A stretch of DNA of 38,745 bases from Chitinophagaceae bacterium (lineage in GTDB: Bacteria > Bacteroidota > Bacteroidia > Chitinophagales > Chitinophagaceae), in NCBI GenBank assembly GCA_036558585.1, contig DATBFI010000337.1, forward strand, positions 1-38,745, in the 5' to 3' direction. This document shows, piece by piece, positions 107-37,854 of this stretch. Under the pieces are notes generated by a model that was not told where the DNA came from, searched no databases, and worked only from the letters and a program-made list of their open reading frames with translations. Every line of letters starts with the position of its first letter. Position 1 is the stretch's first letter. A program made the position numbers and the translations under genes.

Positions 107-1759
107 TTATTTTATAAGAACCATTTGTCTTGTGCTGATGAGTTTTCCATTCACCATCAATGAATATTGATAAGTGCCTGATGAAAGTGTTGATGCATCT
201 ACATTCACAATTCCTTTGCCTGCTCCTGAAATGTTTATTTGCTTTATTGTTTTGCCGCTTTTATCTGTTATGATAATTTGCGCTCTTGTAAATTTTTGGG
301 GCAAACTGTAATGAATGGTTGTTGAATTAGTAAAAGGATTTGGAGCGTTTTGTTCTAACGAGGCATCTGTAAGTAATGTATTAATTTTTGCCTCTGATGA
401 AGTGCTGCCTGAATTGCTTTTGAGCATTGCTTTTATTTCACTCATTTCAGATTTCAAATTTTTAATTTCAGATCTTAAACTGTCATTCGTTTTCACCAGT
501 TCCTGTATAGCCTTTACCGCAAGTACGCCAAATGCCGAATAATCCATAGTATAATATTCGTCATTTGTGCCGTCAAGCTTGTTTTTAAATACTACTTCAG
601 GAAAAATTTTTTCCACTTCCTGTGCTATCATCCCATAATATTTTTTATCGTCTTGTTTATTTTTGAGAAAGTGATATTTTTTTACATCGAGCTGTAAAAT
701 TTTTTCCAGCACATCCGGCGCATGTTCAATGTTTTTTTTCATTCTTGCATCGGATAATGAAGTATAAGAACCGCTTGAAGCATTAAAAACACCCAAAGTA
801 CCTCCACCACTGAAACCTTTATTCCTGGATAATTCCAGGTTGCCATTACCTGCTGTATAAAATCCCCAACTGTTAGTTACAGAAGTTGAAGCATTACTAA
901 TGGCTAAGCCTTGAAGACCAGTAAGAGGACCCTCATTAACATGCGCAACAACAAGATTTGTAGTCGGAGATGTTGTTCCAATTCCCAAGTGTCCTTCGTT
1001 CGTTAATACCATTCGTGTGATATTGCCAGCGCCAAAAAAAGTTCCGGTTCTAAACTCCATTTTGTGAGAAGTGCCGCCGTAGACGATACCGCCATCTACC
1101 GCATTGATATTATTGCCGAATAAAATGCCGCTAACATTAGCTACGGGGGTGAGCAGATTAATAAAACTATTGCCATTTGCTTCAGCTACTATCGGAGATT
1201 CTATATTTGGGGCAATTCCCCCGGCGCTGCCTCTGAAAATATGCAGACTCGCTTTTGGAGTGGTTGTTCCTATTCCTACATTTCCTGCACCCGTTAATAC
1301 CATGCGGGGAGTGTTACCATTGGTTCTAAATTGCAAAGCATTAGGAGTACCGCCTGCAAATGAACTGTTATAAATTATTCCACCGCTTGTGTTACCTGAA
1401 TTGTTGCCGAATAATATACCTGTTTCACTCACCGAAGGTGAAAGCAGGCTCATATATGTGTTGGTAGAACTTTCAGCCGTTATTGCACTTTGGAAGAAAG
1501 GACTTATGCCTGAGCTGCCATTTCTTACATGCAGTTTTGATAGCGGTGCTGATGTACCTATGCCCCAAAGTCCGGTTTTAGTAAGCACACCATTGATAAC
1601 ATTGTTGGATATGAATCTCACATCCTGGTTATTGGTGCTTCCCAGTTTTTCGGTTCCGGTAAGGTTGTTGCCTGCTAATTTCCATTGGCCTGTTTGTGCC
1701 ATAGAAGTAAACCCGAAAAAAGCTGTGGCAATAATTGTAGTTATAATAATCTTCTTCAT
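107..1759 (-). CDS. T9SS-secreted tail-fibre-like protein (fibre modules + Peptidase_S74 intramolecular chaperone + coiled coil + T9SS C-terminal sorting domain)
   Basis: 550-aa ORF with signal peptide MKKIIITTIIATAFFGFTSMAQ. It has three internal ~97-aa modules, each starting G(L/V/L)xGIGT(S/T)xPxxxLHV. SDARMKKNIEHAP...YYGMIAQEVEKIFPEVV...MDYSAFGVLAVKAIQEL fits the endosialidase/tail-fibre chaperone (S74) signature (approx nt 488-754). The heptad-like SLRSEIKNLKSEMSEIKAML follows. The C-terminus NPFTNSTTIHYSLPQKF...GTYQYSLMVNGK fits the Por/T9SS type-A CTD (approx nt 110-364). Confidence 0.85.
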   Translation of the reverse strand: MKKIIITTIIATAFFGFTSMAQTGQWKLAGNNLTGTEKLGSTNNQDVRFISNNVINGVLTKTGLWGIGTSAPLSKLHVRNGSSGISPFFQSAITAESSTNTYMSLLSPSVSETGILFGNNSGNTSGGIIYNSSFAGGTPNALQFRTNGNTPRMVLTGAGNVGIGTTTPKASLHIFRGSAGGIAPNIESPIVAEANGNSFINLLTPVANVSGILFGNNINAVDGGIVYGGTSHKMEFRTGTFFGAGNITRMVLTNEGHLGIGTTSPTTNLVVAHVNEGPLTGLQGLAISNASTSVTNSWGFYTAGNGNLELSRNKGFSGGGTLGVFNASSGSYTSLSDARMKKNIEHAPDVLEKILQLDVKKYHFLKNKQDDKKYYGMIAQEVEKIFPEVVFKNKLDGTNDEYYTMDYSAFGVLAVKAIQELVKTNDSLRSEIKNLKSEMSEIKAMLKSNSGSTSSEAKINTLLTDASLEQNAPNPFTNSTTIHYSLPQKFTRAQIIITDKSGKTIKQINISGAGKGIVNVDASTLSSGTYQYSLMVNGKLISTRQMVLIK

Positions 1760-2130
1760 TGTAATTTTTTTGAATTGAGTTTAAAATTTATGCCCCTGGC
1801 CGAATTTTCCTACTCTTAAGGCCAGGTACGCAAAATGAATTTATGCAGGCTGAATTGCTCCCATTTGCACTGCAGATAAACGCCCGCCTGACCGGACGGG
1901 CAGGAATTGCGACGCAAGGGACGATGCCATGAAAAACAAAAGCCGGTATCAAAAAAAATTTCCGATTTGCATTACAGTTTTTTTACTGCATCAAAAGTAG
2001 AATGATCAAATACCTTTAAAAATGGTATATAAGTACTATCTATGGCATAAATTGATGAGTTGTTCTCACCGGATTTGGGGATTGTTTAATAATTGAAGGG
2101 CTGTAAATTGGCTGCTTTAAAAGAAGAAGC

Positions 2131-2895
2131 ATGATGACTTCCCCGTCTTTAACCAGGACATCTGAGAGAATAATAAATTTTTTAGAAGGGCACAGTAAAA
2201 CAACCTCAAGGAGTGCCGTCGAAGATTTTTTGCCGCGGCTGCATACGCTGCAGAATATTTTTCCGCAATGGGTACTGCTTACCTGTCCTATAAAACATAC
2301 TAATACGCGGTTTATTACAGAGAACAGCAACAGCATCCTTAATATCAAACCTGATTTTTTTAAAAAAATTTATGCACCTGAATTTCTTTACGCACAAGTT
2401 CATGAAGATGACCAGCTGCATGTGAACCTGTGCTTTCAGTATGTAAGTGAACTTTTTAGGAACCGCTTGCCGGAAGAATATCCAAAAATGCGCTATGCTT
2501 TGCAATACAGGTACAGGCGGCAGGATGGCAGCTATATAACACTGCATGATGAAAAATGTGCTTTAAGCCTTCCTGACGGCACTGTTTTATACTATACCAT
2601 TATGAAAGACATTACACAAGAAACAATATTTACCGGTGTGAAAGTGGATATGTACAAACAGAATGCCTTACTTGAAAAAATAGACACATACAGGCCAAAC
2701 CAGGCAGGCAACAGTTTATCAAAACGTGAAACAGAACTGGTTAGCTTATTAAGGAAAGGGCTTACAACAAAAGAAACGGCTTATCATTTAAATATAAGTC
2801 AGCATACGGTGAGAAATATGAAACAGAATATGTTTGAGAAATATAAGGTAAATAATGTGATTGAATTGCTGAATAAGACTCTGCACTATAGTTAA
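2131..2895 (+). CDS. LuxR/GerE-family transcriptional regulator with N-terminal PAS-like sensor fold
   Basis: 254-aa ORF. The C-terminus SKRETELVSLLRKGLTTKETAYHLNISQHTVRNMKQNMFEKYKVNNVIELL is a classic GerE/LuxR HTH. The upstream part (VHEDDQ..., YRYRRQDGSYITLHDE) resembles a PAS fold. The start codon is uncertain. The gene is divergent from the first tail-fibre-like gene. Confidence 0.8.
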   Translation: MMTSPSLTRTSERIINFLEGHSKTTSRSAVEDFLPRLHTLQNIFPQWVLLTCPIKHTNTRFITENSNSILNIKPDFFKKIYAPEFLYAQVHEDDQLHVNLCFQYVSELFRNRLPEEYPKMRYALQYRYRRQDGSYITLHDEKCALSLPDGTVLYYTIMKDITQETIFTGVKVDMYKQNALLEKIDTYRPNQAGNSLSKRETELVSLLRKGLTTKETAYHLNISQHTVRNMKQNMFEKYKVNNVIELLNKTLHYS

Positions 2896-2971
2896 ACACT
2901 TCCGGGATTAACTAATATGATTAATGTGTTTGAGCTATTAAAATAAAAATGCTTAACAATCCTTCTCGTCT

Positions 2972-3027
2972 ATGTTTCGACAAGGTTAACATGACAAGAA
3001 ACTGTCAGCCTGAGCTTGTCGAAGGCT
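2972..3027. repeat. REP-like intergenic palindromic element (ttcgacaag / cttgtcgaa inverted repeat; core tgagcttgtcgaag)
   Basis: A 9-bp perfect inverted repeat, ttcgacaag (2976-2984) and cttgtcgaa (3015-3023). A nested agcct/aggct pair sits at 3007-3011 and 3022-3026. A related gtcatgctga fragment lies at 3093-3102. The 14-mer core recurs with one mismatch inside two kinase genes (32703-32716 and 38140-38153). Confidence 0.35.
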
Positions 3028-3133
3028 TATTGGTAAGGTTTTCAACGTTTAATAGACAACGTTATAATTGATAATGAACAATCATTTAAACCGTCATGCT
3101 GAATAAAATCCAATTCGCCAATCACTTCACATA

Positions 3134-3679
3134 TTAGGTGTCAACTTTTTTTACCAGGGCTTTATACGCGTCAATAAAATTATTTAGAGCTTCCCGTGTT
3201 TTAGGGTCGGTAATTATTCCCTGGTCATTTATTTTGCCTTTGATTCCCTGGATAAGCAAAGTGGTCTCTTCTGTGAAATTCGATTCAACAGTCCTCATTA
3301 TCAATTTTAATTCTTCGTGACCTTTCGCGCCATGGGCAGATGCTGTTAAAAGACCTATAGGCTTATCGGAAAAAACTGTTGTGGAAACGCACCATTCAAT
3401 TGCATTTTTCAAGCCGCTTGGAATACTAAAAACATATTCCGGCGTGCAAATGATGATCCCGTCTGCTTTTGCGATACTCTCTCTGAAATTTAATATTATT
3501 TGAGGCGTGTTGTCAATTGAGAGCTCGGGGCTAAAGTGTGGGAGTGACTTTAGGTTGTCAAATACAATCAGATTAAACTCATCTCTTGTCAGGTTTGCAA
3601 TATGCTCCACAAGTTTAAGATTGGATGAGTTTTCACTAGCACTTCCAATAATTGTAAGAATGCTTTTCTTTTTTCTCAT
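3134..3679 (-). CDS. NADPH-dependent FMN reductase family oxidoreductase
   Basis: 181-aa ORF. ILTIIGSASENSSN...ADGIIICTPEYVFSIPSGLKNAIEW matches the flavodoxin-like FMN reductase signature (TPEYN-x-S-x-PG-x-LKNAIDW). Confidence 0.85.
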   Translation of the reverse strand: MRKKKSILTIIGSASENSSNLKLVEHIANLTRDEFNLIVFDNLKSLPHFSPELSIDNTPQIILNFRESIAKADGIIICTPEYVFSIPSGLKNAIEWCVSTTVFSDKPIGLLTASAHGAKGHEELKLIMRTVESNFTEETTLLIQGIKGKINDQGIITDPKTREALNNFIDAYKALVKKVDT

Positions 3680-3784
3680 TCTTTCATTGCCTTTTTTCGT
3701 CTCTTTAACGCTTCAAAATTTTGCTCTTCATAAGTAAAAATAAAAATTAATGATGTTAGTTATAGTTTGATTGTTGCATGGTTC

Positions 3785-3822
3785 AAAACCTCACAGATTT
3801 GCGGGACCTGTGAGGTTTTTTG
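3785..3822. terminator. GC-stem hairpin with flanking T/A runs (bidirectional terminator-like; copy 1 of a repeated hairpin)
   Basis: The stem aacctcacag (3787-3796) pairs with ctgtgaggtt (3808-3817) and is followed by ttttt on the plus strand. On the minus strand it is also followed by tttt. It lies just downstream of the minus-strand gene 3873-4214. Confidence 0.5.
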
Positions 3823-3872
3823 CAGCTGTTTTTCAATAGCTGATTTGTTGAAGCGCCTCACTATAACGTTTC

Positions 3873-4214
3873 CTACTTTTTCTTTTTATTTCGCCTGTCG
3901 TTAAGCAATTCATCTTTTTCTTCAATTTTGTTAAGTGTGCTGTCTTTGTTAGATGTCTGCGATTTAGATAAATCCTGCACAGAAACATCGTGTATATTTT
4001 TTGTCCCCGGATGGCTGTCAACAGCCTTTGCTCTGAAATAATTACCGGTAACGTGTTCCTGCCTTGAATCAGGATTTTGAAATTCAGGGTATATAGCGAC
4101 GTATTGAAGAAAAAGCCTTGTAATATCCCATTTTGTCATCGGGTATTGATATTGCGCATTTGCTGTTATGTATGTCGCACTGATAATTAGAGCTATCATT
4201 AATTTTTGTTTCAT
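3873..4214 (-). CDS. small secreted hypothetical protein with lysine-rich tail
   Basis: ORF 3873-4250. The internal ATG at 4214 gives the signal peptide MKQKLMIALIISATYITANAQ. No recognisable domain. The C-terminus is highly charged (DRRNKKKK). Confidence 0.5.
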   Translation of the reverse strand: MKQKLMIALIISATYITANAQYQYPMTKWDITRLFLQYVAIYPEFQNPDSRQEHVTGNYFRAKAVDSHPGTKNIHDVSVQDLSKSQTSNKDSTLNKIEEKDELLNDRRNKKKK

Positions 4215-4340
4215 GATGAGTTGTGTTGAGAATACAAAACTCAGGAACAATAGTTCTTTTGCAATCCCTAAAGATTGGAGAGGAAATCCCCGAATGTGGT
4301 TAGCTAAAACGTTGAACGGTTGAAAAGTTGAATAGTTTTA

Positions 4341-4376
4341 TACCTCACAGGTTTGCGAGACCTGTGAGGTATTTTT
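4341..4376. repeat. Copy 2 of the repeated hairpin (tacctcacaggtttgcgagacctgtgaggta + ttttt)
   Basis: An 11-bp stem (4341-4351 with 4361-4371). It matches the 3787-3817 hairpin at 27 of 31 positions in the same orientation. It lies immediately downstream of the stop of gene 4383-6131. Confidence 0.5.
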
Positions 4377-4382
4377 CAAACA

Positions 4383-6131
4383 TTATTTTGCTATTGCCAT
4401 TTTCTTTGTATCTGTTACTTTTCCATCGACAATCAATGAATAATTGTATGTTCCTGATGAAAGTGTTGCTGCATCTATATTCAATATGCCTTTTCCAGCC
4501 ACCTCCCAGCTTCCCCCGATGGGGGAAGGGTTTGAAATATTTATTTGCTTCAATTTATTTCCATTCATATCAGTAATTACAAGTTGTGCATTAGTGAATT
4601 TTTGTGGCAATGTGTATCGAATAGTTGTTGAATTAGAAAATGGATTAGGAATGTTTTGGTCTAAAGATGCATTAGTGAGCAATGCATTAACTGTTGCCCT
4701 TGATGAGGCACTGCTTTGATTGCTTTTGAGAACGATTGCTTTTAACTCATCAATTTGTTTTTGCTGTTCTTCATTTTGTTTTTTCTCCGCGAGGAGTCCT
4801 GCGGACAACTCATGATTTTGCACGGAAAGCTCCTGCATTGCTTTGATGATAATGGGAATAAACTCGGTATAATTTAATGCTTTAAATTTTGTCACTTCAG
4901 AAGGCGATGACATTTCTTTATCTGCATCCGGTTTTGTTGAGCGGCTGTCAAACTTTGTATTTTTCACCAGGTTTGGAAGCAGTTTTTCCACATCCTGCGC
5001 TATAAGCCCATAATGATCCCCCTGCGGCAGGTGCATTGAAGCATAATTGCCCTCTTTTTTATACTGATAAAGCTTAGGATGCAATTGATTAATGATATTC
5101 ATAGCGCTGCTGAAGTCGTGAATATTCTGCTTCAGTTTTTCATCCGAGCTTTGATAAGTGCCGGTGGTAAAAACATCTCCATCAAAATTCCCTGCAAAAG
5201 CCTCAGGATTATTGGTTGAAGCGAAAATGCCATCTCCGTTTGTTGAAAAAGCCAGGATAGCCGAACCAACGGTGTTTGTCGCCTGTATTGTGCCAAAAAG
5301 AGAACTGTTATTTAATACCGCTGCACTTCTGTCTTTTTTGCTAATAAGTAGCCCGACTACCGAATTATCATTGTCTCCAAAAATATCAAGTTGTGCGAAT
5401 GGACTTGTTTTTCCTATACCTACCCTTCCTTCACCTGTTAATACCATGCGCGGCTCATTGCCGTTGGTTCTGAATTGTAAAGAATTAGCGGGAGAGCTTT
5501 TAAATGCGCTGTTATAAACTATGCCGCCACTTACATTATTTTCGGAGGTTCCGAACAATATACCTGTTTCATTCGCTTTAGGTGCTAGTAAATTAATATA
5601 GGCGTTGGAGGAATTTTCGGCTGTTATTACACTTTGAAAGAAAGGCGCTGTGCCCGAACTGCCATTTAGTACATGCAATTTTGATTGCGGAGCAGTAGTT
5701 CCTATGCCTACTCTTTTATTTCCAAGATCAATATCCATCGCACTTACGCCTCCTCCGAGAAAATCTATTTTGTCTCCTAAAGTATATCGAAGACCAAAAT
5801 TTGAAAACGCAGGAGAATAGGCAAACACCATGCGGCTTGTATTCGCACTGCCTGATTCATAAATAAACATCATCGGTTTTGGATTTGAGCCCGGGTTTGG
5901 AAATTGTATAACTGACTGATCAGAGTTAAACCTTAAGTTACCCGTATTGGTAAGCGACATGCGTTTAGCATTATTGGTCATAAAGTCGAGCGAAAAATTG
6001 TTAGTACTGCCAAGTTTTTGTGTTCCGTTTAAATTGTTCCCCGCTAATTTCCATTGACCTGTTTGTGCGATTAATGTGCTGCTACTTAATAATGCAGTAA
6101 AACAGTAAAGTAGAATTTTTTTGTTTTTCAT
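4383..6131 (-). CDS. T9SS-secreted tail-fibre-like protein, paralog 2 (divergent S74 chaperone domain)
   Basis: 582-aa ORF with signal peptide MKNKKILLYCFTALLSSSTLIAQ followed by the family motif TGQWKLAGNNLNGTQKLGSTNN. The S74-like segment is SSDEKLKQNIHDF...HYGLIAQDVEKLLPNLV...LNYTEFIPIIIKAMQEL (approx nt 4827-5147). The T9SS CTD is IPNPFSNSTTIRYTLPQKF...GTYNYSLIVDGK (approx nt 4386-4670). Confidence 0.85.
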   Translation of the reverse strand: MKNKKILLYCFTALLSSSTLIAQTGQWKLAGNNLNGTQKLGSTNNFSLDFMTNNAKRMSLTNTGNLRFNSDQSVIQFPNPGSNPKPMMFIYESGSANTSRMVFAYSPAFSNFGLRYTLGDKIDFLGGGVSAMDIDLGNKRVGIGTTAPQSKLHVLNGSSGTAPFFQSVITAENSSNAYINLLAPKANETGILFGTSENNVSGGIVYNSAFKSSPANSLQFRTNGNEPRMVLTGEGRVGIGKTSPFAQLDIFGDNDNSVVGLLISKKDRSAAVLNNSSLFGTIQATNTVGSAILAFSTNGDGIFASTNNPEAFAGNFDGDVFTTGTYQSSDEKLKQNIHDFSSAMNIINQLHPKLYQYKKEGNYASMHLPQGDHYGLIAQDVEKLLPNLVKNTKFDSRSTKPDADKEMSSPSEVTKFKALNYTEFIPIIIKAMQELSVQNHELSAGLLAEKKQNEEQQKQIDELKAIVLKSNQSSASSRATVNALLTNASLDQNIPNPFSNSTTIRYTLPQKFTNAQLVITDMNGNKLKQINISNPSPIGGSWEVAGKGILNIDAATLSSGTYNYSLIVDGKVTDTKKMAIAK

Positions 6132-6327
6132 GATCGTTTTTTTAGTGATAAAAGCAGTTTTGATAATACGCTTTGCAATGCATACGGGCCGTATTATTGC
6201 AATACTGTTTGTTATGAAAGAATTAAATCAGCCGTTATCAATAAGAGAACAGCAGAACAGTGGTGGTTTGTTTTTTATATAATAGGTTATCTTTTTACAG
6301 AACGCGTTTGATGGTTTGTATTTGTAC

Positions 6328-8043
6328 TCATCTTGTCAGTACCATTTGTTTTGTGCTGATTACTTTTCCATCAACAATCAATGAATAATTGTATGTTCCT
6401 GATGAAAGTGTTGCTGCATCTATATTCAATATGCCTTTTCCAGCCCCCTTCCAGCTTTCCCCTGTGGAGGAAGAGTTTGGAACGTTTATTTGCTTCAATG
6501 TATTTCCATTCATATCAGTAACTACAAGTTGTGCATTAGTGAATTTTTGTGGCAATGTGTAGCGAATAGTGGTTGAATTAGAAAATGGATTTGGAGTGTT
6601 TTGTTCTAATGTTGCTGAAGGGATTGAAATATTTTTTGATGATCGAGGATCATTGTTGGAATGTGCATTCATCATCGCTTCAAGCTTTTCAATTCTTTTT
6701 TCATGTTCATCTTTTTCGGATTTCAGATTTCGTATTTCGGATTTTACTTCATCATTCTCTGTTTTCAATGCCTCATTTGTTTTTACCAGTTCCTGTATTG
6801 CTTTTATCGCGATCACACCAAATGCAGAATAATCCATCGTATAGTATTCACCAACACCACCATCGATCTTATTATGATACACGATCTCAGGAAATATTTT
6901 TTCTACCTCCTGTGCGATCATGCCATAATATTTTTTGTCTTCAGTTTTGTTTTTGAGAAAATGATATTTTTTTATATTGAGCTGCAAAACTTTTTCCAGG
7001 ACATCAGGAGCTTTTTCAATGTCTTTTTTCATTCTCGCATCAGAGAGAGGTGTGTAAATGCCACTCGCACCATCGAAGCGACCAATGGCACTGCTGATAT
7101 TATTATCCCTGTATAATTCCAGACTTCCATTGCTTGTGGTATAAAGAAGCCATGAGGTATTGCCAAATTGCGAAACATGATGTATGCGTAAGCCGTGCGG
7201 GTCAAAGCTGGCAATAGCGGGATGCACTAAATGCAAATCAACATCAGGAGTGGTATTTATTCCTAACTGCCCTGTGTTTGGACCAAACAGGTCTTTTTGT
7301 AAAACAAGACGAGTGATGTTATTGTCACTTCTGAATTCCATTCTGGATTGTCCTCCGCTATATACAATGCCGCCCTCGGCAACATTTGAGTTATTTCCAA
7401 ACAAAATACCGCTCACTTTTGTCAAAGGCGTAAGCAGATTAATAAATGCATTCCCATTTGCTTCTGCCACTATAGGAGATTCTATATTAGGAGCGGCGCC
7501 GCCTGCACTACCCCTAAAAACATGCAGGCTGGATTTTGGAGTGGTTGTTCCTATTCCAACATTTCCTGCATCTGTTAATACCATGCGGGGAAGATTGCCA
7601 TTGGTGCGGAATTGCAAAGCTTTGGGAGCACTGCCCTGGAAGCCGCTGTTATAAATAATGCCACCGCTTACATTGTTTTCAGATGTTCCGAATAATATGC
7701 CCGTTTCATTTGCTTTTGGTGCAAGTAAATTAATATAGGAATTCGAAGAATTTTCAGCCGTTATTATGCTTTGAAAAAAAGGCGTTATACCTGAGCCGCC
7801 TGTTTGCACATGCAGCCTTGAAAGCGGTGCAGTAGTTCCTATGCCCATATTGCCTGCATTGGAAAGCGACATGCGTTTAACATTGTTTGTAATAAAATCC
7901 AGCGAAAAGTTGTTGGTGCTGCCAAGCTTTTGAGTTCCGTTCAGGTTGTTGCCCGTTAATTTCCATTGACCGGTTTGTGCTATTAATGTGCTGCTACTTA
8001 GTAATGCAGTAAAAGAAAAGAGTAAAACTTTTTTGTTTTTCAT
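6328..8043 (-). CDS. T9SS-secreted tail-fibre-like protein, paralog 3 (mosaic of paralogs 1 and 2)
   Basis: 571-aa ORF. The N-terminal 66 aa and the CTD are nearly identical to paralog 2. The central fibre modules and the S74 domain (LSDARMKKDIEKAPDVLEKVLQL...YYGMIAQEVEKIFPEIV...MDYSAFGVIAIKAIQEL, approx nt 6778-7044) are nearly identical to paralog 1. Confidence 0.85.
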   Translation of the reverse strand: MKNKKVLLFSFTALLSSSTLIAQTGQWKLTGNNLNGTQKLGSTNNFSLDFITNNVKRMSLSNAGNMGIGTTAPLSRLHVQTGGSGITPFFQSIITAENSSNSYINLLAPKANETGILFGTSENNVSGGIIYNSGFQGSAPKALQFRTNGNLPRMVLTDAGNVGIGTTTPKSSLHVFRGSAGGAAPNIESPIVAEANGNAFINLLTPLTKVSGILFGNNSNVAEGGIVYSGGQSRMEFRSDNNITRLVLQKDLFGPNTGQLGINTTPDVDLHLVHPAIASFDPHGLRIHHVSQFGNTSWLLYTTSNGSLELYRDNNISSAIGRFDGASGIYTPLSDARMKKDIEKAPDVLEKVLQLNIKKYHFLKNKTEDKKYYGMIAQEVEKIFPEIVYHNKIDGGVGEYYTMDYSAFGVIAIKAIQELVKTNEALKTENDEVKSEIRNLKSEKDEHEKRIEKLEAMMNAHSNNDPRSSKNISIPSATLEQNTPNPFSNSTTIRYTLPQKFTNAQLVVTDMNGNTLKQINVPNSSSTGESWKGAGKGILNIDAATLSSGTYNYSLIVDGKVISTKQMVLTR

Positions 8044-10685: not shown

Positions 10686-11642
10686 TCAATAAAATGACTC
10701 ATCTTTTGTAAATCTTTTATCAGTAAGAGAATTAAGAAAGGCTTCAAGATCTTTTTTTTCATTTTCTGTCAGGTCAAGAGGCTTTACCAGTAAGCTGTCC
10801 CTGTTAACAGCATTTGGTACAATCTTATCAGGCTCATTATAAAAATCAATCACCTCTTTTAAAGTTTTGAACATACCATTGTGCATATAAGGCGCAGTAA
10901 CGGCAACGTTGCGAAGTGCTGCTATTTTAAATTTTCCAAGGTCTTCTGCTTTGCCAGATATTGTGATCCTCCCGCTGTCATTTAATTCTTTGCCATTGAA
11001 CAAACCAATGTTGCGGAATTCATTTAGTGTGAAGTTTGAACCGAAATGACATTTGATGCATTTGCCTTTCGTATTGAAAACATTAAATCCTCTTTTTACT
11101 GCATCATCAACGGCATTCGAATCATCATAAAATTTCCATACATCAAAAGGGCTATCGCTCGTTTCCAGTGTACGTTCAAAAGCTGCTATTGCTTCAGAAA
11201 GATTTTTACGCGTTGGGCCACTGTTAAATATTTTTTGAAAGTATGTTTTATACTTATCGCTTTGTTGCAATCGCATCAATGCATTATCAAGAGGCAAGTT
11301 CATCTCTGCAGGATTTTCAATTGGTGACAATGCCTGTTCTTCTAAATTTTTTGCCCGGCCATCCCAAAAGAAAACTGATTGCAGTGCAACATTCATCGCT
11401 GAAGGAGTATTTCTTACACCTTTAGCACCACCAACACCAGGACTTGTTGCGGAAGTATCAGCAAAGGCATAATTGGGTTTGTGGCAACTTGCACAACTTA
11501 CAGTACTGTCTTTTGAAAGAATAGGATCAAAGAATAAAAGCCTTCCAAGTTCTGCTTTATCCGCAGGCTTATCCTTATTAAAAGAAAAAAGACCAGCAAT
11601 GATTACAACGGTTGCAGCACTAAGCACGATATATCTTTTCAT
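10686..11642 (-). CDS. di-haem cytochrome c peroxidase (CCP/MauG family)
   Basis: 318 aa with a signal anchor. Two CXXCH motifs (CASCHKP and CIKCHFG), plus WDGR, PYMHNG and FLxSLTD, all typical of bacterial CCP. Confidence 0.9.
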   Translation of the reverse strand: MKRYIVLSAATVVIIAGLFSFNKDKPADKAELGRLLFFDPILSKDSTVSCASCHKPNYAFADTSATSPGVGGAKGVRNTPSAMNVALQSVFFWDGRAKNLEEQALSPIENPAEMNLPLDNALMRLQQSDKYKTYFQKIFNSGPTRKNLSEAIAAFERTLETSDSPFDVWKFYDDSNAVDDAVKRGFNVFNTKGKCIKCHFGSNFTLNEFRNIGLFNGKELNDSGRITISGKAEDLGKFKIAALRNVAVTAPYMHNGMFKTLKEVIDFYNEPDKIVPNAVNRDSLLVKPLDLTENEKKDLEAFLNSLTDKRFTKDESFY

Positions 11643-11671
11643 CTTTTTATTCTTTTATGACGAATATGATT

Positions 11672-12025
11672 TTATTTTACTCTGCCAAAAACCATTTTAT
11701 TCATTCCCCGCCTTCGTCCTTCACAACTGTCATTTACAACTTCCCAGTGCATTGAGTCTGAATTACTGAAAAAAACAATTTTATAAATTCCCTTTATATT
11801 CCCGCAACCATTGTCTTCAAAAGAAAATATGCTATCACTCCATGCATAGGTGCCACTGAAAAGCGGCTTTTTATTAAAATAGCCTTCCATAGAATTGTCT
11901 GATTTAAATATTACTCCGAGTATATTTCCATCAGGCAATTTGCTCTCCCACCTTCCTGTAATTTTATCTGTTGAAGTAACTGCAAGGAGTAAGATTGTGA
12001 AAGTGAAAACGAGAATTATTTTCAT
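11672..12025 (-). CDS. small secreted hypothetical protein (lipocalin-like GxWE start, two conserved Cys), tandem paralog A
   Basis: ORF 11672-12052. The ATG at 12025 gives signal peptide MKIILVFTFTILLLAV. It aligns with the neighbouring 119-aa protein at roughly 40-45 percent identity by eye, including TG(R/K)WE, GY(F/I)NKKP, DNGC, (I/V)YK(I/V)xFF, (S/T)C, R(R/E)GM and GRVK. Confidence 0.6.
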   Translation of the reverse strand: MKIILVFTFTILLLAVTSTDKITGRWESKLPDGNILGVIFKSDNSMEGYFNKKPLFSGTYAWSDSIFSFEDNGCGNIKGIYKIVFFSNSDSMHWEVVNDSCEGRRRGMNKMVFGRVK

Positions 12026-12075
12026 TTTACTTAAGTGCTGGTTGCTATTCAAAATTTGCTCGTGGGATATAGCAT

Positions 12076-12435
12076 TTATTTCACTCTGCCCATAATAAGC
12101 CTTTGCATACCCTCTCTTCTTTCAGTGCAGGTATCAGTGATAGGAACAAATCGTAATGAATCTGCATTATTGAAAAAATTTACTTTATAAACCCCGGTCG
12201 CTCCGTTGCAACCATTATCTGTAAATGTCAGTACGCTGTCTTCAGCGTTGTATGAATAATTACCGGTTACAAAAGGTTTTTTATTAATGTAGCCGTCAAA
12301 GCTGCCGTCGTTTCTAAATACTGCGCTTGTAACATTTCCTTTGGAGGAGGGTTGAGTTTCCCATTTGCCTGTAAGTTGATCCATTGCAGTAAAAGCAAAA
12401 AGTAGTGTGACGAAAGAAATAAAAATTGTTTTCAC
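12076..12435 (-). CDS. small secreted hypothetical protein, tandem paralog B
   Basis: 119 aa with signal peptide MKTIFISFVTLLFAFTA. It shares the conserved motifs of 11672-12025. Confidence 0.6.
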   Translation of the reverse strand: MKTIFISFVTLLFAFTAMDQLTGKWETQPSSKGNVTSAVFRNDGSFDGYINKKPFVTGNYSYNAEDSVLTFTDNGCNGATGVYKVNFFNNADSLRFVPITDTCTERREGMQRLIMGRVK

Positions 12436-12594
12436 GTTTTTAGATTTTTAGATGATTAAAAATTTGTCCGCAAAAATGAATTGAAAATGTAAAGCTGCCT
12501 ATAACCGAAAGTGGGGAATTTTTAGAATGTTTTTCACAGTTGTAAAACACGGTGATAAATCAATATTGAGTAGTTTTTATTTTTGCCCGAAAAT

Positions 12595-12656
12595 GTTGCA
12601 GTAACCCTGCAACTTTCTACAATCGTTGCATTTCACGACATGAAATGCAAATTTTT
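12595..12656 (-). terminator. two tandem hairpins downstream of the methyltransferase gene
   Basis: A perfect 10-bp stem, ttgcatttca (12626-12635) with tgaaatgcaa (12641-12650). A second 6-bp stem, gttgca/tgcaac, sits at 12595-12612. On the minus strand the second hairpin is followed by atttt. The plus-strand side has attttt at 12651-12656. Confidence 0.4.
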
Positions 12657-12690
12657 AAAGTCATGTTTATGCGCACATGTTTGATATGAT

Positions 12691-13494
12691 TCAATTTTTT
12701 ATGCCCGTTATTCTAAAAATGGCAGGAAAAGATATGAGGGAGTTATTATCGTCGGTAAATTTTTTTAAGTCTTTCAAAATGTCATTTATTGTTTGCTCAT
12801 TTTCCAGTTCCTCTTCGATCAGTGCACTTTTTATTTTGTCCATTGTTTCATAAGCGACCTGTTTTCCTTCGCCAGAAATAAATACAGGTTGTATCACATC
12901 CATTGCAATAATTTTTATTCCTGCATCTGTAAATAATGCAGGTAAAAAAGAACCCAATTCTGCATTACCCCCCTTTCTTTTTACTGTTTCAGGATACAAT
13001 TTTGAATAGCGCTCAAAAGCCGCATTGAAAGGATAACAGAACTGCCTGCTGAATTGAATATCTTCTGCAATGATCTTTCCGCCTGGCTTCGCAGCCTCTT
13101 TCATTTTACGCAATGCAGTAAGAGGATCGCCCAAATGTGAAAGCAAAAATCTTGCGTACACAAAATCAAAATCATTTTTATAATCTATTCCAAAAATATC
13201 TTTGTGTACGTATTGAATATTATGCACGTTTTCTTTTAATGCATCTTCTTTTGCGAGTTTTAGGATTTCATTGTCGAAATCAATTCCAATTATTCTGCAC
13301 TTTTCACCTGTAAGTTTAGCAACAAGCAATGCAACGTTTCCTCCGCCACAGCCTGTATCAAGAAAACCTGAGGCCGTTGTAATACCCGCATTCATGAGCC
13401 ACGCCTGAGTGTACGGCTGCATCGCAGCCGCAAGAATATTTAAGCGGCTTTTTCCTTCTTCACCTCCGGAAATAGCATATGTATTTTGCTGCAT
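12691..13494 (-). CDS. class I SAM-dependent methyltransferase
   Basis: 267 aa. The motif I element LDTGCGGGNVA, the IGIDFD acidic loop and the LKPGG-like AKPGGKII are typical of the Methyltransf_11/25/31 fold. Confidence 0.85.
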   Translation of the reverse strand: MQQNTYAISGGEEGKSRLNILAAAMQPYTQAWLMNAGITTASGFLDTGCGGGNVALLVAKLTGEKCRIIGIDFDNEILKLAKEDALKENVHNIQYVHKDIFGIDYKNDFDFVYARFLLSHLGDPLTALRKMKEAAKPGGKIIAEDIQFSRQFCYPFNAAFERYSKLYPETVKRKGGNAELGSFLPALFTDAGIKIIAMDVIQPVFISGEGKQVAYETMDKIKSALIEEELENEQTINDILKDLKKFTDDNNSLISFPAIFRITGIKN

Positions 13495-13569
13495 AATAGT
13501 TCACACATTTAAGAACTCAATAAAATTTTTTAGCAGGCGAATTGCCTCATAAAGGTATGTCGCAGCCGG

Positions 13570-14928
13570 TTAAAAAACTTTTATACGATTTTGTTTATTT
13601 AAAACCTGGCTGATATAAAAAGTACATAATTCGTACGGGTTATAACTGCTGAATTCGTTACTTAATTTGTCTATGTTGTTTTGATAGGTTTGGTCATTCA
13701 ATACTTTTTCTACACCTTTTCTTATTTGCGATGGTGTTGGTTTTTCTGTACGCAGGTTAATACCCAGTTTAAAATATTCAACTCTTGCATTTATTTCACT
13801 CTTGCCTTCGTGTACTCCCGAAACTACCATCGGCAATTTGTTTTGGATGCTAAGCATAACGCCGCCATATCCGCCATTGGTAATATAGATATCCGCGTAA
13901 GGCATCACCTCTGAGAAAGGAATAAAATCTTCGACGATAATATTATCAAATGCATATTTTTCCTGCAACTCTTTTGTTCCTGAACTACCCGTTGTTGCTA
14001 CTACAAGATAATCGGTGTCTTTAAATGCCTCCAAGGTTGGTATCAATAATTTTGAGGTGTCTTTTTCAACCGTACCCTGCGTTACCAATAACACTCTCGA
14101 ATACTGCGTGAGCTTTTCATTATACCAGGAATGCCTTTTATTTTTAGCGTTATAAGGCAATAGCGCGCCAATAAAACGAATGTTTCTTCCAAGATCGCTA
14201 CGGTAGTACTCAAAACCAGGCGTGCCACTTTGCAATAATAAAGTCGACTTACGAATTAGCATATCAAAAGCATTTGAACCCTCCACTTTGATTCCATACC
14301 GATTCAAAAGGGATGTCATTACCTTATTAGGCTTACTGAATAAAATTTTATCCGCAACGAGACGAAGCAAGTCCTGTTTCCTTCTTCCCCAAAAAGTGCC
14401 GGAGGGCATTAAGCCTAAACCGGCCGGTGCAAGATCTTTTGATGTTTCAGTAAGTGGCAGCACTCCAACAGAAATGACCGGAACATGAAGTTTCTCCCTT
14501 ATAAATGGTATCGCCATAAACATGCAATCACATATTACCATATCAAACGGAAAGCTTTTATGTATCTCTTTTATATCTTCAAAATATTCTGTTGAGCGAA
14601 GAATAAAGCCATTGATCAGATCAAAACAAAGCCTCTTTATCATTCCTTTGATATTCTTTCTTTCAGGAAATAGCTGTTCACCATTCTCACCGTTTATATC
14701 CACTGCTTTTTTAAAAGAGTAATGCGGGATCAATAATTTTCTTAATTTCTCTGCATATGTTGCTGAAGTGTACCAACGCACGTCATGACCAATATATTGC
14801 AAGTGCACTGCAAGACCAGTAAGGGGATTGAAATGACCATCCCCCGGAACAGTTGCGAACAGGATTCGTTTGCCTGAACTTATTAAATGATCAAAGGGAA
14901 TATTTTTTATTAATGTACTTTTCTGCAT
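13570..14928 (-). CDS. GT1-family (UDP-glycosyltransferase / MGT-type) glycosyltransferase
   Basis: 452 aa. The N-terminus ILFATVPGDGHFNPLTGLAVHL and the C-terminal donor-binding region ADIYITNGGYGGVMLSIQNKLPMVVSGVHEGKSEINARV are hallmarks of GT-B GT1 enzymes that glycosylate small lipophilic acceptors. Confidence 0.85.
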   Translation of the reverse strand: MQKSTLIKNIPFDHLISSGKRILFATVPGDGHFNPLTGLAVHLQYIGHDVRWYTSATYAEKLRKLLIPHYSFKKAVDINGENGEQLFPERKNIKGMIKRLCFDLINGFILRSTEYFEDIKEIHKSFPFDMVICDCMFMAIPFIREKLHVPVISVGVLPLTETSKDLAPAGLGLMPSGTFWGRRKQDLLRLVADKILFSKPNKVMTSLLNRYGIKVEGSNAFDMLIRKSTLLLQSGTPGFEYYRSDLGRNIRFIGALLPYNAKNKRHSWYNEKLTQYSRVLLVTQGTVEKDTSKLLIPTLEAFKDTDYLVVATTGSSGTKELQEKYAFDNIIVEDFIPFSEVMPYADIYITNGGYGGVMLSIQNKLPMVVSGVHEGKSEINARVEYFKLGINLRTEKPTPSQIRKGVEKVLNDQTYQNNIDKLSNEFSSYNPYELCTFYISQVLNKQNRIKVF

Positions 14929-15251
14929 GTAGACTGATTTAATTGATGAATTATTTTTACTATGAACCGATTGAAATTTCAGCAGATGTTTCTATAGCCA
15001 TCGCGATCATCATTGAAAATAGAAGAAACCACGACAAAACTGTTTCTGCAGAAAATTTTTTTCAGTTTGAATAAGCTCATCATTGTATTTTTTTTCCTGT
15101 TGATATTTTAATGCTTTATATTTTTCGATGCGATAATCCTGATTGGTGCCCTGTGTGATACAGCGTACAAGTCCTGCAGGCGGATCCCGGTAAATCGGAA
15201 AGATGCGACGCAATCGTAGCATCACAAGAGGGATATAGCCCGCTCAAAAAA

Positions 15252-16412
15252 TCATGAAGCCTTGCGAACAGTATCATCAAAATAATAACTGATGTATTTT
15301 CTTTGCGACCATTTTTTATTAATCCATTTCCTAAGCGGGACTTCGATTCTGTAATAGGTAAGCGAAGAAAGAGCTACAGATAAAACAAGAATGAACAGGC
15401 AGTACCAAATACCCGTAGAGAAAGCAAAAGTTTTGTCTGCAGTCGTGGGTATTGTTATTCCTGATGCTTTTATGATTGCAGGAACGAAAAAAAGAATGAT
15501 CAGTTGGGTCATATATATTGAATAGGAAATATCACCCAGGTATTGCAACACGCGATTGTTGCAAAGCTTTGTGACGTGTCCGTTGTTGCTGGCAAATGCA
15601 AGAACAAGAAGAGCAAACAAAGGAACATACAGCACATCATTGATACCAAAGTGCATAGCTGCAATTAACACCACACTGCTTACCAGCGACAGAATATCCT
15701 TTTTGAAAACATTTTTAATGCGATTTGACTGATAAAATAAATAAAGTATCATACCTGTTATAAAACCGGCCATGCCTCGAAGAAAGCCATAATCAAAAGT
15801 TGAATTAAGATCGTGGGGCACAGGAAGCAAAGGGTTTAAAGGATTCGTTCTCGGCAGCAGGTACATGATTGATAAATAAGCAGTGATAATAAATATAATG
15901 CAACATGTTACAGCCAACCATTTTCTTTTATTGATGCATAACACAACCAGCGGGAATATCATGTAAGACCACCATTCTGCGCTAATGCTCCATGACGGTA
16001 CATTTAAAGTAAAAATTTTATGAATGCCGAAAGATTGCAGTAGCAAAATATGGGTTGGAATTGCCGCGGGATTAAATACGGGATTAACACCTGTTATAAA
16101 TATCATGAGTACTGAGATCAATAACATAAAAAAATGCAAGGGGTAAATCCTTGCAAATCTTGCAACGAGAAATTTACTGAATGAACGACGATCAATGCTG
16201 TTCTTAAAATCCTTGTTGTACACATGAAAAATGATAAACCCGCTCATCACAAAAAACAGGTCGACCATAAGATAACTTTTTCGTATGAACATAGAATCGC
16301 CGGCATTGACAAATCTGCCGATCACTTCTTCGAAGTGATATACTACAACCATTAATGCGGCAAATCCTCTTAAAGGAGTGAGATTAGAAATGTAAGAAAT
16401 TGAAGGTTTCAT
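15252..16412 (-). CDS. acyltransferase family 3 (integral-membrane O-acyltransferase)
   Basis: 386 aa with about 10 predicted TM segments. The N-terminal LRGFAALMVVVYH motif is characteristic of Acyl_transf_3. Confidence 0.85.
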   Translation of the reverse strand: MKPSISYISNLTPLRGFAALMVVVYHFEEVIGRFVNAGDSMFIRKSYLMVDLFFVMSGFIIFHVYNKDFKNSIDRRSFSKFLVARFARIYPLHFFMLLISVLMIFITGVNPVFNPAAIPTHILLLQSFGIHKIFTLNVPSWSISAEWWSYMIFPLVVLCINKRKWLAVTCCIIFIITAYLSIMYLLPRTNPLNPLLPVPHDLNSTFDYGFLRGMAGFITGMILYLFYQSNRIKNVFKKDILSLVSSVVLIAAMHFGINDVLYVPLFALLVLAFASNNGHVTKLCNNRVLQYLGDISYSIYMTQLIILFFVPAIIKASGITIPTTADKTFAFSTGIWYCLFILVLSVALSSLTYYRIEVPLRKWINKKWSQRKYISYYFDDTVRKAS

Positions 16413-16541
16413 GTAAGCTTATTTTGTTTTTTTGTGAACATTGCTTCATCATGTGCAGAGAATCTTTTTGCAGAAAATCTTATTGTGAGCTTTTGCTGAC
16501 TACACAAGAATTATATTCCTGATTCATTCAAAAAACCGTTC

Positions 16542-17516
16542 CTATTTTTTTAAGAAAATTTCCACCTTATTTTTTATCGGTTTTATTGTTTGCAAATAAT
16601 CGTAAATGGCACCCAGATCTTTTTCTGTCATTGTGCTGTAGGTAATCCACGGCATCGGCGTATTAAAATCCGTTGGTTTTAGTTTAACAGGATGATAAGA
16701 TGTATCTGCGTAGAATTTAAATCGCCGGATAAATGCTTCTCTTGTCCAGCCGCCAATGCCGGTTTCTTTATCGGGCGTTATGTTTGGAGAATACACTGTG
16801 CCCGCGGGCATCATAAACTGATGACCACCGCTAAATTCACTGCCCGCAATAATATCTCCTTTAACTTCTTTAGTGTGGCATTGCATGCAACTTGCAGCAT
16901 TCACCAAATATTTTCCGTATTCAATTGTATTGAATGAATCAACTTTTGTTATTAATGCAGCTTTTACAGGAATAGTATTTACAATAAAGTTTAGAGGGAA
17001 GTCCAGTTCCCTTTCTGGTATTTTGCTTTTTATTGGTCTTAGTGTTCTTAAATAAGCTATCATGGAATACACATCTTCTTTATCCATTTGCGCATAGTGA
17101 TCGTAAGGCATAAGAGGAAAAAGCGCAGCGCCATCTTTGCTTACCCCCGCGGTTATGGCTCTGAATACTTCTCCATCTGTCCAGCTTTGCAATGCATAAG
17201 GCGTTATGTTTTTTGTATAAAGGTTTCCGGGAAAATCCATTTCTCTTGTAAACTTTTCGCCGCCTGCTCCAAAGGTTGCAGAGTCAACGGGACCCGCGAA
17301 CAATGCAAAATTTCTTTGCGCATGACAAACCATGCAGGCTGCAACACTATTTACCAAATATCTGCCACGTTCAATTCTTTGCGGTGTTAGCTTTACTTTT
17401 ATATCAGGGGCGTCGCCAATATCCGGCAATGCAAATGACACATAAGCAGCAACCGCAGAAACAAGGATCAGCAGTGCAGCGATAACCGCGAACGTTACTC
17501 TAAAAAACTTTTTCAT
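16542..17516 (-). CDS. membrane-anchored di-haem c-type cytochrome
   Basis: 324 aa with an N-terminal anchor FFRVTFAVIAALLILVSAVAAYV. Two CXXCH motifs (CMVCHAQ and CMQCHTK) lie in two repeated halves, each ending Y(L/D)YL(R/Q)T(L/I)(R/K)PIK. Confidence 0.85.
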   Translation of the reverse strand: MKKFFRVTFAVIAALLILVSAVAAYVSFALPDIGDAPDIKVKLTPQRIERGRYLVNSVAACMVCHAQRNFALFAGPVDSATFGAGGEKFTREMDFPGNLYTKNITPYALQSWTDGEVFRAITAGVSKDGAALFPLMPYDHYAQMDKEDVYSMIAYLRTLRPIKSKIPERELDFPLNFIVNTIPVKAALITKVDSFNTIEYGKYLVNAASCMQCHTKEVKGDIIAGSEFSGGHQFMMPAGTVYSPNITPDKETGIGGWTREAFIRRFKFYADTSYHPVKLKPTDFNTPMPWITYSTMTEKDLGAIYDYLQTIKPIKNKVEIFLKK

Positions 17517-17609
17517 AATGTTGGATTGTTACCTGTAAAATTGTTTGATAGCTTAATTGATTACTCAAGTCCACAATTAACCATTAAGCACTTAAACAAT
17601 TTCTTTTTT

Positions 17610-18428: not shown

Positions 18429-18467
18429 ACATAGTTTTTATGAATCATTAACCCATCAATGATCCTT

Positions 18468-34442: not shown

Positions 34443-34448
34443 AATATC

Positions 34449-37820: not shown

Positions 37821-37854
37821 ATCATTAGTTTATTTGAAGATAATCAGAAAATGC

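Follow-up and report, generated by a model that had tools for sequence, protein, structure and literature searches.

Paralogous fibre-like proteins of a Chitinophagaceae bacterium place a T9SS sorting domain behind an S74 domain of the self-cleaving type

A 38,745-nucleotide (nt) stretch of DNA from a Chitinophagaceae bacterium (contig DATBFI010000337.1 of assembly GCA_036558585.1, positions 1 to 38,745, referred to hereafter as the window) harbours three paralogous genes, P1, P2 and P3, whose predicted products join a fibre-like N-terminal part to a Peptidase_S74 (S74) intramolecular chaperone domain and then to a C-terminal domain (CTD) of the T9SS, or type IX secretion system. We propose, with a probability of roughly 0.6, that P1-P3 are homotrimeric, beta-helical fibre adhesins that are exported by the T9SS and shed their S74 domain and CTD through self-cleavage gated by trimerisation. 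What we only infer, and word conditionally below, is that the chains trimerise and are cleaved, that they depend on the T9SS, in which order they are exported and cut, that the head retains the fibre, and what its ligand is. New in this architecture are the placement of a T9SS tag behind a domain of the self-cleaving type, its wide distribution and the existence of natural variants lacking the catalytic dyad; S74 fibres of the mosaic adhesive trimer (MAT) kind and the principle of release by such a cut are already known.

All three genes lie on the minus strand, where the open reading frame (ORF) list agrees with a previous reading made from the letters alone (the sequence-only reading). P1 (107..1759) encodes a full fibre precursor of 550 amino acids (aa) with matches to PF13884 (E 3.3e-16) and TIGR04183 (23.4 bits), its parts being, in order, the signal, the head, two modules, a tip, S74 with its coil, a linker and the CTD. 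P2 (4383..6131, 582 aa) and P3 (6328..8043, 571 aa) were delineated by ORF, PF13884 and a hidden Markov model (HMM) of the module, and their full-length alignments to P1 give identities of 51% and 65%, respectively.

With PF13884, whose gathering score is 22 bits, P1, P2 and P3 reached 59.7, 54.7 and 59.4 bits (E 3e-16, 1e-14 and 4e-16). In P1 the S74/ICA domain, also supported by Foldseek and phmmer, covers residues 336-449 (413..754, minus strand), with the codons of the catalytic Ser336 and Lys341 at 752-754 and 737-739; in P2 it starts at Ser329 (codon 5145-5147), with Lys334, and in P3 at Ser334 (codon 7042-7044), with Lys339, both on the same strand. The entry motif, which the sequence-only reading had described as kept, is indeed intact in its S-D-x-x-x-K form, reading SDARMK in P1, SDEKLK in P2 and SDARMK in P3 with serine and lysine five residues apart, and every other conserved S74 residue is kept as well. 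The same model matched 82 of 82 relatives, of which 76 keep Ser336, 77 keep Asp337 and 77 keep Lys341.

An AlphaFold2 (AF2) model of P1, built from the 82-sequence alignment with a mean predicted local distance difference test score (pLDDT) of 83.4, contains a beta-rich shaft, a small S74 core and a single long helix (residues 407-448, 42 residues) that gives way to a disordered linker. Foldseek searches of the PDB with P1 returned the Bdellovibrio proteins Bd2133, Bd1334 and Bd3182, followed by the MyRF ICA domain (7dc3; target template-modelling score 0.67, root-mean-square deviation 3.6 A over 121 columns) and then by the chaperone-bearing L-shaped fibre of T5 (4uw8). Phmmer against the same database identified Bd2133 (8ond, 1.8e-7) and Bd3182 (8ojn, 1.6e-5), both matched by the shaft, and gp37 of phage S16 (6f45, 7e-5), matched by the S74 domain. 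The dyads of P1-P3 correspond to that of MyRF (S587/K592), which is equivalent to S911/K916 of endoNF and cleaves solely in the trimer, and the C-terminal helix of its ICA domain is the main driver of trimerisation (PMC8326128). Because of this and of the match to 7dc3, helix 407-448 of P1 belongs to the S74/ICA domain, and the coiled coil that had been set apart as a separate element loses that status.

Behind the coil, P1 continues with a Ser/Thr-rich, disordered linker (residues 450-467, 359..412, minus strand; pLDDT below 50 at 450-461) and ends in a type-A T9SS CTD (residues 468-550, 110..358, minus strand) recognised by TIGR04183, whose strands (479-548) form a confident beta-sandwich (pLDDT above 90) and whose Foldseek matches are Ig-like domains, that of PorU among them. 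The corresponding domains of P2 (residues 490-582) and P3 (residues 479-571) are encoded at nt 4386-4664 and 6331-6609 of the minus strand, carry an insertion of about 10 aa and share 50-68% identity with the P1 CTD across alignment windows. The profile check proposed by the sequence-only reading gave a divided answer: P1 passed the TIGR04183 cut-off of 23 by 0.4 bits, and P3 (19.1) and P2 (17.6) fell under it. With PF18962, P1 reached 26.7 bits (cut-off 27), and 63 of the 82 relatives were matched at E <= 0.01, the best at 6.7e-11. We nevertheless regard the type-A assignment as sound, because the hallmark motifs (QNxPNPF, G-T-Y-x-Y and a terminal K-x-(M/L)-x-x-K) are present, nothing follows the domain in the chain and PF18962 recognises the family as a whole. 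The T9SS is usual in the Bacteroidota orders to which the relatives belong.

The Sec signal and conserved head reported for all three proteins are directly legible in their sequences. Each start has an n-region rich in Lys, then a hydrophobic core, and A|Q as the context of cleavage; in P1 the signal spans residues 1-21 (1697..1759, minus strand) and signal peptidase I is predicted to cut at SMA|Q, exposing Gln22. Conservation of this residue in at least 90% of the 82 relatives fits the habit of Bacteroidota of having Gln at the mature N-terminus. The P1 head (residues 22-62, 1574..1696, minus strand; QTGQWKLAGNNLTGTEKLGSTNN...) follows the pattern QTGQWKL(A/T)GNNLxGTxKLGSTNN found in all three paralogs, among which it is invariant, with a mean top-residue frequency of 0.58. 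The P1 shaft (986..1564, minus strand) comprises modules at 66-161 and 161-258 (module HMM E 4e-39 and 2.6e-36), each opening with the capping-loop motif VGIGTTxPxxxLH; the two are 43% identical (z = 27 versus shuffles), so that the repeats are far beyond chance. The earlier figure of about three modules of some 97 aa is too high, above all for P2: P1 and P3 each carry two complete modules and no more than the opening ~25 residues of another, and P2 carries a single one. P2 thus consists of a signal (1-22), a head (23-63), a 75-aa insertion (66-140), one full module (141-237) and a divergent tip (238-328), and P3 of a signal (1-22), a head (23-63), ~97-aa modules (66-162 and 162-251) and a tip (252-333).

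The tip of P1 (residues 259-335, 755..985, minus strand), made of the degenerate third module, ends at Leu335, immediately before the putative cleavage serine. It is the least conserved folded segment among the paralogs, with identities of 0.33-0.41 between P1 and P3 and 0.10-0.17 between P1 and P2. Across the 82 relatives, top-residue conservation is 0.58 in the head, 0.34 in module A, 0.54 in module B, 0.40 in the tip, 0.63 in S74, 0.31 in the linker (the lowest of all segments) and 0.58 in the CTD. This is the pattern that an adhesin anchored by its N-terminus and binding through its C-terminal tip would show.

Windowed identities revealed that P3 is a chimera, P2-like at both ends and P1-like in the middle: over the signal and head, a portion of module A and the CTD its identity to P2 is about 90%, and over module B and S74 it shares 83-92% of its residues with P1. 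At the DNA level, repeats between the P2 and P3 ends are 85-89% identical. Searches with the head and shaft alone found these parts elsewhere in combination with four or more other types of C-terminus, and also recovered members in Planctomycetota and Verrucomicrobiota. An alternative end, a recurrent and undescribed module of about 90 aa, occurs in the relatives P0251, P0263 and P0277, which have the common head and modules, no CTD and the C-terminal pattern ...GW(S/C)DYVFEKDYKL...(I/V)xxxxHLP(G/D)(I/V)...IEELTLY... followed by a helix. Its WSDYVFEK start loosely recalls the S74 entry motif, with a different Ser-Lys spacing, and P0251 lies on the same soil-metagenome contig as P0018.

The closest known relatives of P1, both by sequence and by Foldseek, are the MAT structures 8ond, 8ojn/8onc and 8oml. 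Bdellovibrio bacteriovorus encodes 21 MAT fibres (Caulton et al. 2024, PMC10769870), which begin with a signal peptide, continue with a conserved N-terminal domain, believed to attach to the surface of the predator itself, and a trimeric beta-helix with capping loops, and end in an S74 domain in 13 proteins and in several other tips in 8 (PMC10769870). In Bd3182 the capping loops are 96 residues apart and the S74 domain cleaves itself at its serine, the cut being blocked by S782A; crystals grown from a 632-922 construct contain only residues 647-781 (PMC10769870). Like P1-P3, the MATs are chromosomally encoded, exist as several paralogs per genome and have a signal peptide, a conserved N-terminal region, VG(I/V)GTxxPxxxL capping loops about 96 aa apart and a C-terminal S74 domain with SDxxxK, and the mosaic exchange of S74 and non-S74 ends is common to both families. 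The differences are that P1-P3 extend beyond S74 with a linker and T9SS CTD, whereas MATs end at the S74 coiled coil; that P1-P3 measure 550-580 aa against about 1000 aa; and that their host, unlike Bdellovibrio, is not known as a predator. On these sequence and model comparisons, P1-P3 are best described as MAT-like fibres. The phage-fibre-like build noted in the sequence-only reading thus holds for the shaft and S74, which match phage fibres, with the qualification that the nearest known relatives are bacterial. The route by which MATs cross the outer membrane is not stated (PMC10769870).

The phage comparison also delimits what has been added. Tail fibre profiles of PHROG reach their own C-terminus by residue ~455 in P1 and P3 (468 in P2), and 778 phage records were matched over shaft and S74, with identities of 25-30%, none of those listed passing residue 448; since the phage profiles stop before them, the linker and CTD form an add-on behind a complete phage-type fibre end. 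Phage K1F endosialidase (3GW6), T5 pb1 (4UW8) and S16 gp37 (6F45) resemble P1-P3 in their S74 fold, in a Ser-Lys dyad spaced by five residues, in the terminal coiled coil and in an upstream trimeric beta structure (predicted in the case of P1-P3), and differ in lacking a signal peptide, assembling in the cytoplasm and ending at the coiled coil.

Surveys of genomes and viral contigs placed this add-on in cellular Bacteroidota. In species-representative genomes we found 98 S74 ORFs in 79 loci (at least 535 loci overall), distributed over Chitinophagaceae, Saprospiraceae, Cytophagales, Cyclobacteriaceae, Flavobacteriaceae and Sphingobacteriales; 53 end 0-44 residues past the coil, and the other 45 have a further 95-182 residues ending in a CTD. 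IMG/VR viral contigs contributed 73 S74 ORFs, of which 71 end no more than 32 aa behind the coil and two carry a CTD. These two candidates for phage-encoded fusions, L080 and L109, are short Sec-signal proteins next to TetR, aminotransferase, methyltransferase and subtilase genes or a contig edge, and were set aside as probable host flank. Searching 1.84 billion representative proteins with the P1 segment 330-550 yielded 329 clusters (50% identity) at E <= 1e-30, and nearly all of the best 150 matches span S74, coil and CTD and end at the protein C-terminus. The phylogenetic profile suggested by the sequence-only reading hence depicts an architecture that is not rare, and the S74+CTD fusion is, as judged from these sequences, a common and Bacteroidota-specific cellular adaptation.

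A rough neighbour-joining tree of 271 S74 domains (119 columns) requires at least 17 changes of CTD state by parsimony; a single gain was not borne out, as the tree, too weak for more, shows no one clean clade. The NCBI pipeline names relatives 'tail fiber domain-containing protein' and some of them 'T9SS type A sorting domain-containing protein'. In literature searches combining S74, ICA or tail fibre with T9SS we found no description of the fusion, in line with the sequence-only reading, which knew of no described function for it; one match on S74 proved to be a strain label, 'S74'. The examined supplements of the MAT paper (PMC10769870) make no mention of Bacteroidetes or T9SS. Other genomes also have several copies of such genes: the cultured strain Paraflavisolibacter caeni has at least three, with three S74+CTD genes within 8 kb (NZ_JAOTIF010000008.1, 10754-18676; locus L047), and one Flavisolibacter metagenome-assembled genome has six S74 ORFs, five complete and one partial, on separate contigs (L011, L015, L018, L020, L024 and L061).

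From these elements we propose the following course of events. The precursor would cross the inner membrane through Sec, signal peptidase I cutting before Gln22, and the CTD beta-sandwich at the extreme C-terminus would direct the chain to the T9SS translocon. The S74/ICA domain, through its three-helix coiled coil, would bring three chains into register and template folding of the shaft from the C-terminus backwards, and the Ser336-Lys341 dyad would cut Leu335|Ser336 only after S74 has trimerised. As the domain order confirms, a cut at this serine would sever the fibre from the CTD, and one such cut would drop S74, coil, linker and CTD as a single piece of about 24-28 kDa. In P1 the predicted products are a mature chain of 314 aa (32 kDa) and a cassette of 215 aa (24 kDa), those of P2 and P3 being similar, so that the mature fibre (P1 22-335) would measure about 32 kDa x 3 and leave its variable C-terminal tip free for a ligand. 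It is through the head that the fibre would most likely attach to a conserved partner on the cell surface, although release of a free fibre is equally possible. With recombined ends and divergent tips, the three paralogs would differ in binding specificity.

Since cleavage needs the trimer, its timing would depend on the place at which the chains come together for the first time, most likely the outer membrane or the space beyond it; assembly outside is favoured because it suits an intramolecular chaperone and avoids early loss of the tag. The order fibre-S74-CTD is also the only workable one, because the S74 template must end the fibre and the T9SS signal must end the chain, with the consequence that one cut suffices to remove the two disposable parts. 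For release from an anchor or export tag at the C-terminus, the nearest working analogy is MYRF, in which an S74/ICA domain likewise stands between a functional N-terminal part and a C-terminal holding element. Its trimerisation-gated self-cleavage frees an N-terminal trimer from a C-terminal tether (PMC3742443, PMC8326128), and the cut can be delayed by an inhibitor or partner (PMC7153906). MYRF differs from P1-P3 in being a eukaryotic membrane protein of the endoplasmic reticulum that has a C-terminal transmembrane segment and releases a transcription factor. The release or timing checkpoint put forward in the sequence-only reading accordingly has precedents in MYRF, and its principle is not new.

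With canonical type-A T9SS cargo such as the gingipains, P1-P3 share the Sec signal and a beta-sandwich CTD behind a flexible linker. Removal of the CTD is expected to follow export (PMC4804311). In canonical cargo the PorU sortase provides the sole C-terminal processing, whereas P1-P3 hold a second, autonomous putative cut site some 130-160 residues upstream of the CTD, which implies that the passenger could leave the CTD without PorU and that PorU would handle a chaperone stub. The PorU bypass brought up in the sequence-only reading is not needed for a free product: many type-A CTD cargos are released anyway, as in Flavobacterium johnsoniae.

T9SS maturation is currently understood as one event, in which PorU removes the CTD and the passenger is released or anchored. 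The S74+CTD family puts a second, autonomous predicted protease between passenger and CTD in hundreds of Bacteroidota clusters and, if the cut works as in its relatives, would provide a PorU-independent way off the secretion tag. It would also mean that a trimeric fibre needing a C-terminal template can still carry a C-terminal export signal, and would give a handle on whether oligomerisation of T9SS substrates precedes or follows their passage across the outer membrane. MAT-type adhesins would then extend from one predator to a major environmental phylum, with an export route supplied for these members, unlike the Bdellovibrio MATs.

Several observations weigh against the proposal. The P2 and P3 CTDs stay under the cut-offs of both models, and no T9SS genes were found among the window ORFs scanned. 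All-against-all clustering of the ORFs within 8 kb at 77 loci disclosed no specific conserved partner gene, the sole cluster being a heterogeneous two-component system. The head has only about 40 residues, of which 22-34 have low pLDDT in the AF2 model, and is small next to the beta-rich N-terminal domain of about 130 aa that directly follows the signal peptide in MATs, so that assigning it an anchoring role is a guess. About half of the S74 fibres in Bacteroidota, and likewise the non-S74 relatives examined, have a signal peptide and no CTD, from which it follows that the CTD is not the sole route by which such fibres are handled. Lastly, because the T9SS is reported to move folded cargo and to need only a folded CTD (PMC9251779), a fibre could trimerise and cut itself already in the periplasm, where it would be stranded unless the fragments stay associated.

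A more elaborate form of the proposal treats S74, coil and CTD as a self-removing assemble-and-export cassette, with export as monomers, trimerisation outside, PorU-free release and retention by the head, and takes lineages without the dyad to display a C-terminally anchored fibre of opposite polarity. We advance this combination tentatively and find it doubtful that all of its parts hold together; if they did, it would represent a new mode of T9SS cargo maturation, with a two-residue switch between released and anchored fibres.

The alternative that survives best places assembly and self-cleavage in the periplasm, the cleaved S74-coil-CTD piece remaining clamped on the tip and escorting the trimer through the T9SS pore. 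Molecules and final product would be those of our proposal, the order of events alone being different. The reported ability of the T9SS to move folded proteins by means of a folded CTD (PMC9251779) is in keeping with such an escort, as is the cleavage of S74 domains wherever they trimerise, including during expression in E. coli (PMC10769870, PMC8326128), and the beta-helix of Bd3182, reported as 40 A across (PMC10769870), is narrow relative to the 36-strand barrel of SprA (PMC9251779). The cleaved S74 domain is, however, absent from the Bd3182 crystals, which contain 647-781 only; a trimer would bear three CTDs, for which we found no case in the literature; and a non-covalent escort would be a fragile basis for so large a family. 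We consider this order of events unlikely.

The distribution of the dyad bears on a different alternative, in which nothing is cut at S74: the domain would serve as a trimerisation module, PorU would remove the CTD and anchor the coil end (in the manner of anionic lipopolysaccharide attachment), and the head would face outward. Five of the 82 relatives have lost both Ser and Lys while keeping the head, modules, S74-like fold, helix and CTD; a further apparent loss, in P0079, is a misalignment, SDLQLK being kept. In a pool of 271 S74 domains taken from genomes, from viral contigs and from close homologs, the last of these being biased towards relatives of P1, true dyad loss affects 10/153 CTD-bearing and 0/118 CTD-less domains (Fisher p = 0.006, a value that ignores shared ancestry) and spans at least six lineages, which is suggestive of a tie between dyad loss and the presence of a CTD. 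The AF2 model of one dyad-less relative of P1-like architecture, P0010, is predicted to retain the S74 topology and helix (pLDDT ~80), and an uncleaved form thus appears viable when a CTD is present. It is plausible that the self-cut is dispensable only if PorU or another factor can process the C-terminus, in which case the fibre would remain linked to the partner to which PorU couples it. For P1-P3 themselves a non-cleaving fibre is nonetheless improbable: they keep S-D-x-(R/K)-x-K and all other conserved S74 residues, the dyad persists in 93% of relatives, which points to selection for catalysis, and the variable region adjoins S74 while the head is conserved, the opposite of what an outward-facing head predicts.

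Two other apparent dyad losses were discarded. A large dyad-less group among the representative hits was an artefact of the motif window, caused by an insertion in S74, with SDGRxK kept in 36/37, and two 'motif-less' viral S74 domains keep Ser and Lys as SLRSHK. The subgroup P0150-P0247 of the representative hits is a larger, second S74+CTD family of 450-880 aa with a different shaft (...SNQVRIGNSSVTSIGGYANWTNISDGRxKKNIKENVPGLAFINKLRPVTYNLD...) and an insertion of 40-60 aa inside the S74 domain; in its member P0245, Gly replaces the catalytic Ser.

The C-terminal beta-sandwich might instead be an Ig-like binding or spacer domain, with export by another route. Its HMM scores are marginal or under the cut-off, and it weakly matches FlgD_ig and DUF3244 too; moreover, 39 of 51 CTD-less S74 fibres in Bacteroidota have signal-peptide-like N-termini. 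We regard this as very unlikely in view of the hallmark type-A motifs at the extreme C-terminus behind a disordered linker, of relatives reaching E 6.7e-11 with PF18962, of the confinement of the add-on to Bacteroidota and of the T9SS type A names that NCBI gives to some relatives. That P1-P3 serve as tail fibres in a prophage, a tailocin or a contractile injection system, as a phrog_1980 match at E 1e-27, the 778 phage records sharing shaft and S74 and the NCBI name 'tail fiber domain-containing protein' might imply, is scarcely credible given their Sec signals and T9SS CTDs, the near absence of the CTD from viral contigs (the two exceptions lying beside cellular genes or a contig edge) and a 38.7-kb window in which Pfam scans of 20 further ORFs detected no phage, sheath, tube or baseplate gene and in which no tRNA is present.

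The surroundings of the fibre genes are those of a bacterial chromosome. Besides the genes between P1 and P2, namely a LuxR-type regulator, an FMN (flavin mononucleotide) reductase (3134-3679) and a small ORF (3873-4250), the window encodes, by Pfam, a prolyl oligopeptidase, a cytochrome c peroxidase, a glutamate dehydrogenase and a cyclophilin; methyl-, glycosyl-, acyl- and formyl-transferases; and cytochrome c maturation proteins, an ABC ATPase and three histidine kinases. Because the flanks are solely housekeeping and regulatory genes, with no tRNA and nothing phage-like, P1-P3 are chromosomal cellular genes, and a prophage or tailocin origin was rejected.

The LuxR-family regulator (2131..2895, plus strand) is transcribed divergently from P1. 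It had been called a LuxR/PAS protein, of which the GerE domain is clear (E 2.1e-11) and the PAS_3 match, at 22.8 bits against a cut-off of 25.6, is not. Elsewhere, GerE regulators are about 5-fold denser near fibre genes, with 8 ORFs in the 145 kb lying less than 1 kb away versus 7 in 730 kb further out (5.5 versus ~1 per 100 kb; 7/76 loci); these are receiver-domain response regulators, often accompanied by a histidine kinase, and not PAS proteins. The gene at 2131-2895 is a candidate fibre regulator only. At the far end of the window, about 24 kb from the fibre genes, three consecutive histidine-kinase genes occupy 32403-38640 (minus strand), one of them encoding a sensor of 1123 aa that combines Reg_prop beta-propeller repeats with a Y_Y_Y domain; two-component systems recur next to fibre genes in other genomes.

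Scanning for sigma-70 promoters and terminators gave no excess over the shuffled expectation, the sigma-70 consensus being unsuited to Bacteroidota promoters. A 52-nt element is present in two copies of 83% identity (3773-3824 and 4327-4378), one following directly on the P2 stop and the other lying downstream of ORF 3873-4250. It contains a perfect hairpin rich in GC (CCTCACAG...CTGTGAGG) with a T-run behind it and is probably terminator-like; neither copy was listed by the simple terminator scan. ORF 3873-4250 (minus strand), directly downstream of P2 on the same strand, encodes 125 aa from a TTG start, or from an internal Met that gives MKQKLMIALIISATYITANA|Q, has a signal-peptide-like start and a Lys-rich tail and has no match in Pfam or PHROG.

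Three further ORFs of the window, all on the plus strand, deserve mention. Those at 21329-22684 (451 aa) and 24652-26358 (568 aa) have no Pfam or PADLOC match, and the former overlaps two shorter antisense ORFs and may not be a real gene. The third, at 30930-32165, encodes a 411-aa protein whose N-terminal ~255 residues are without any match and whose C-terminal ~150 residues match Pfam PycTM, the transmembrane domain of Pycsar effectors (E 7e-34), the protein also matching the PADLOC PycTM/2TM effector (E 8e-14). It is flanked by cytochrome c maturation genes, with no adjoining cyclase seen, and may be a stand-alone or fused anti-phage effector.

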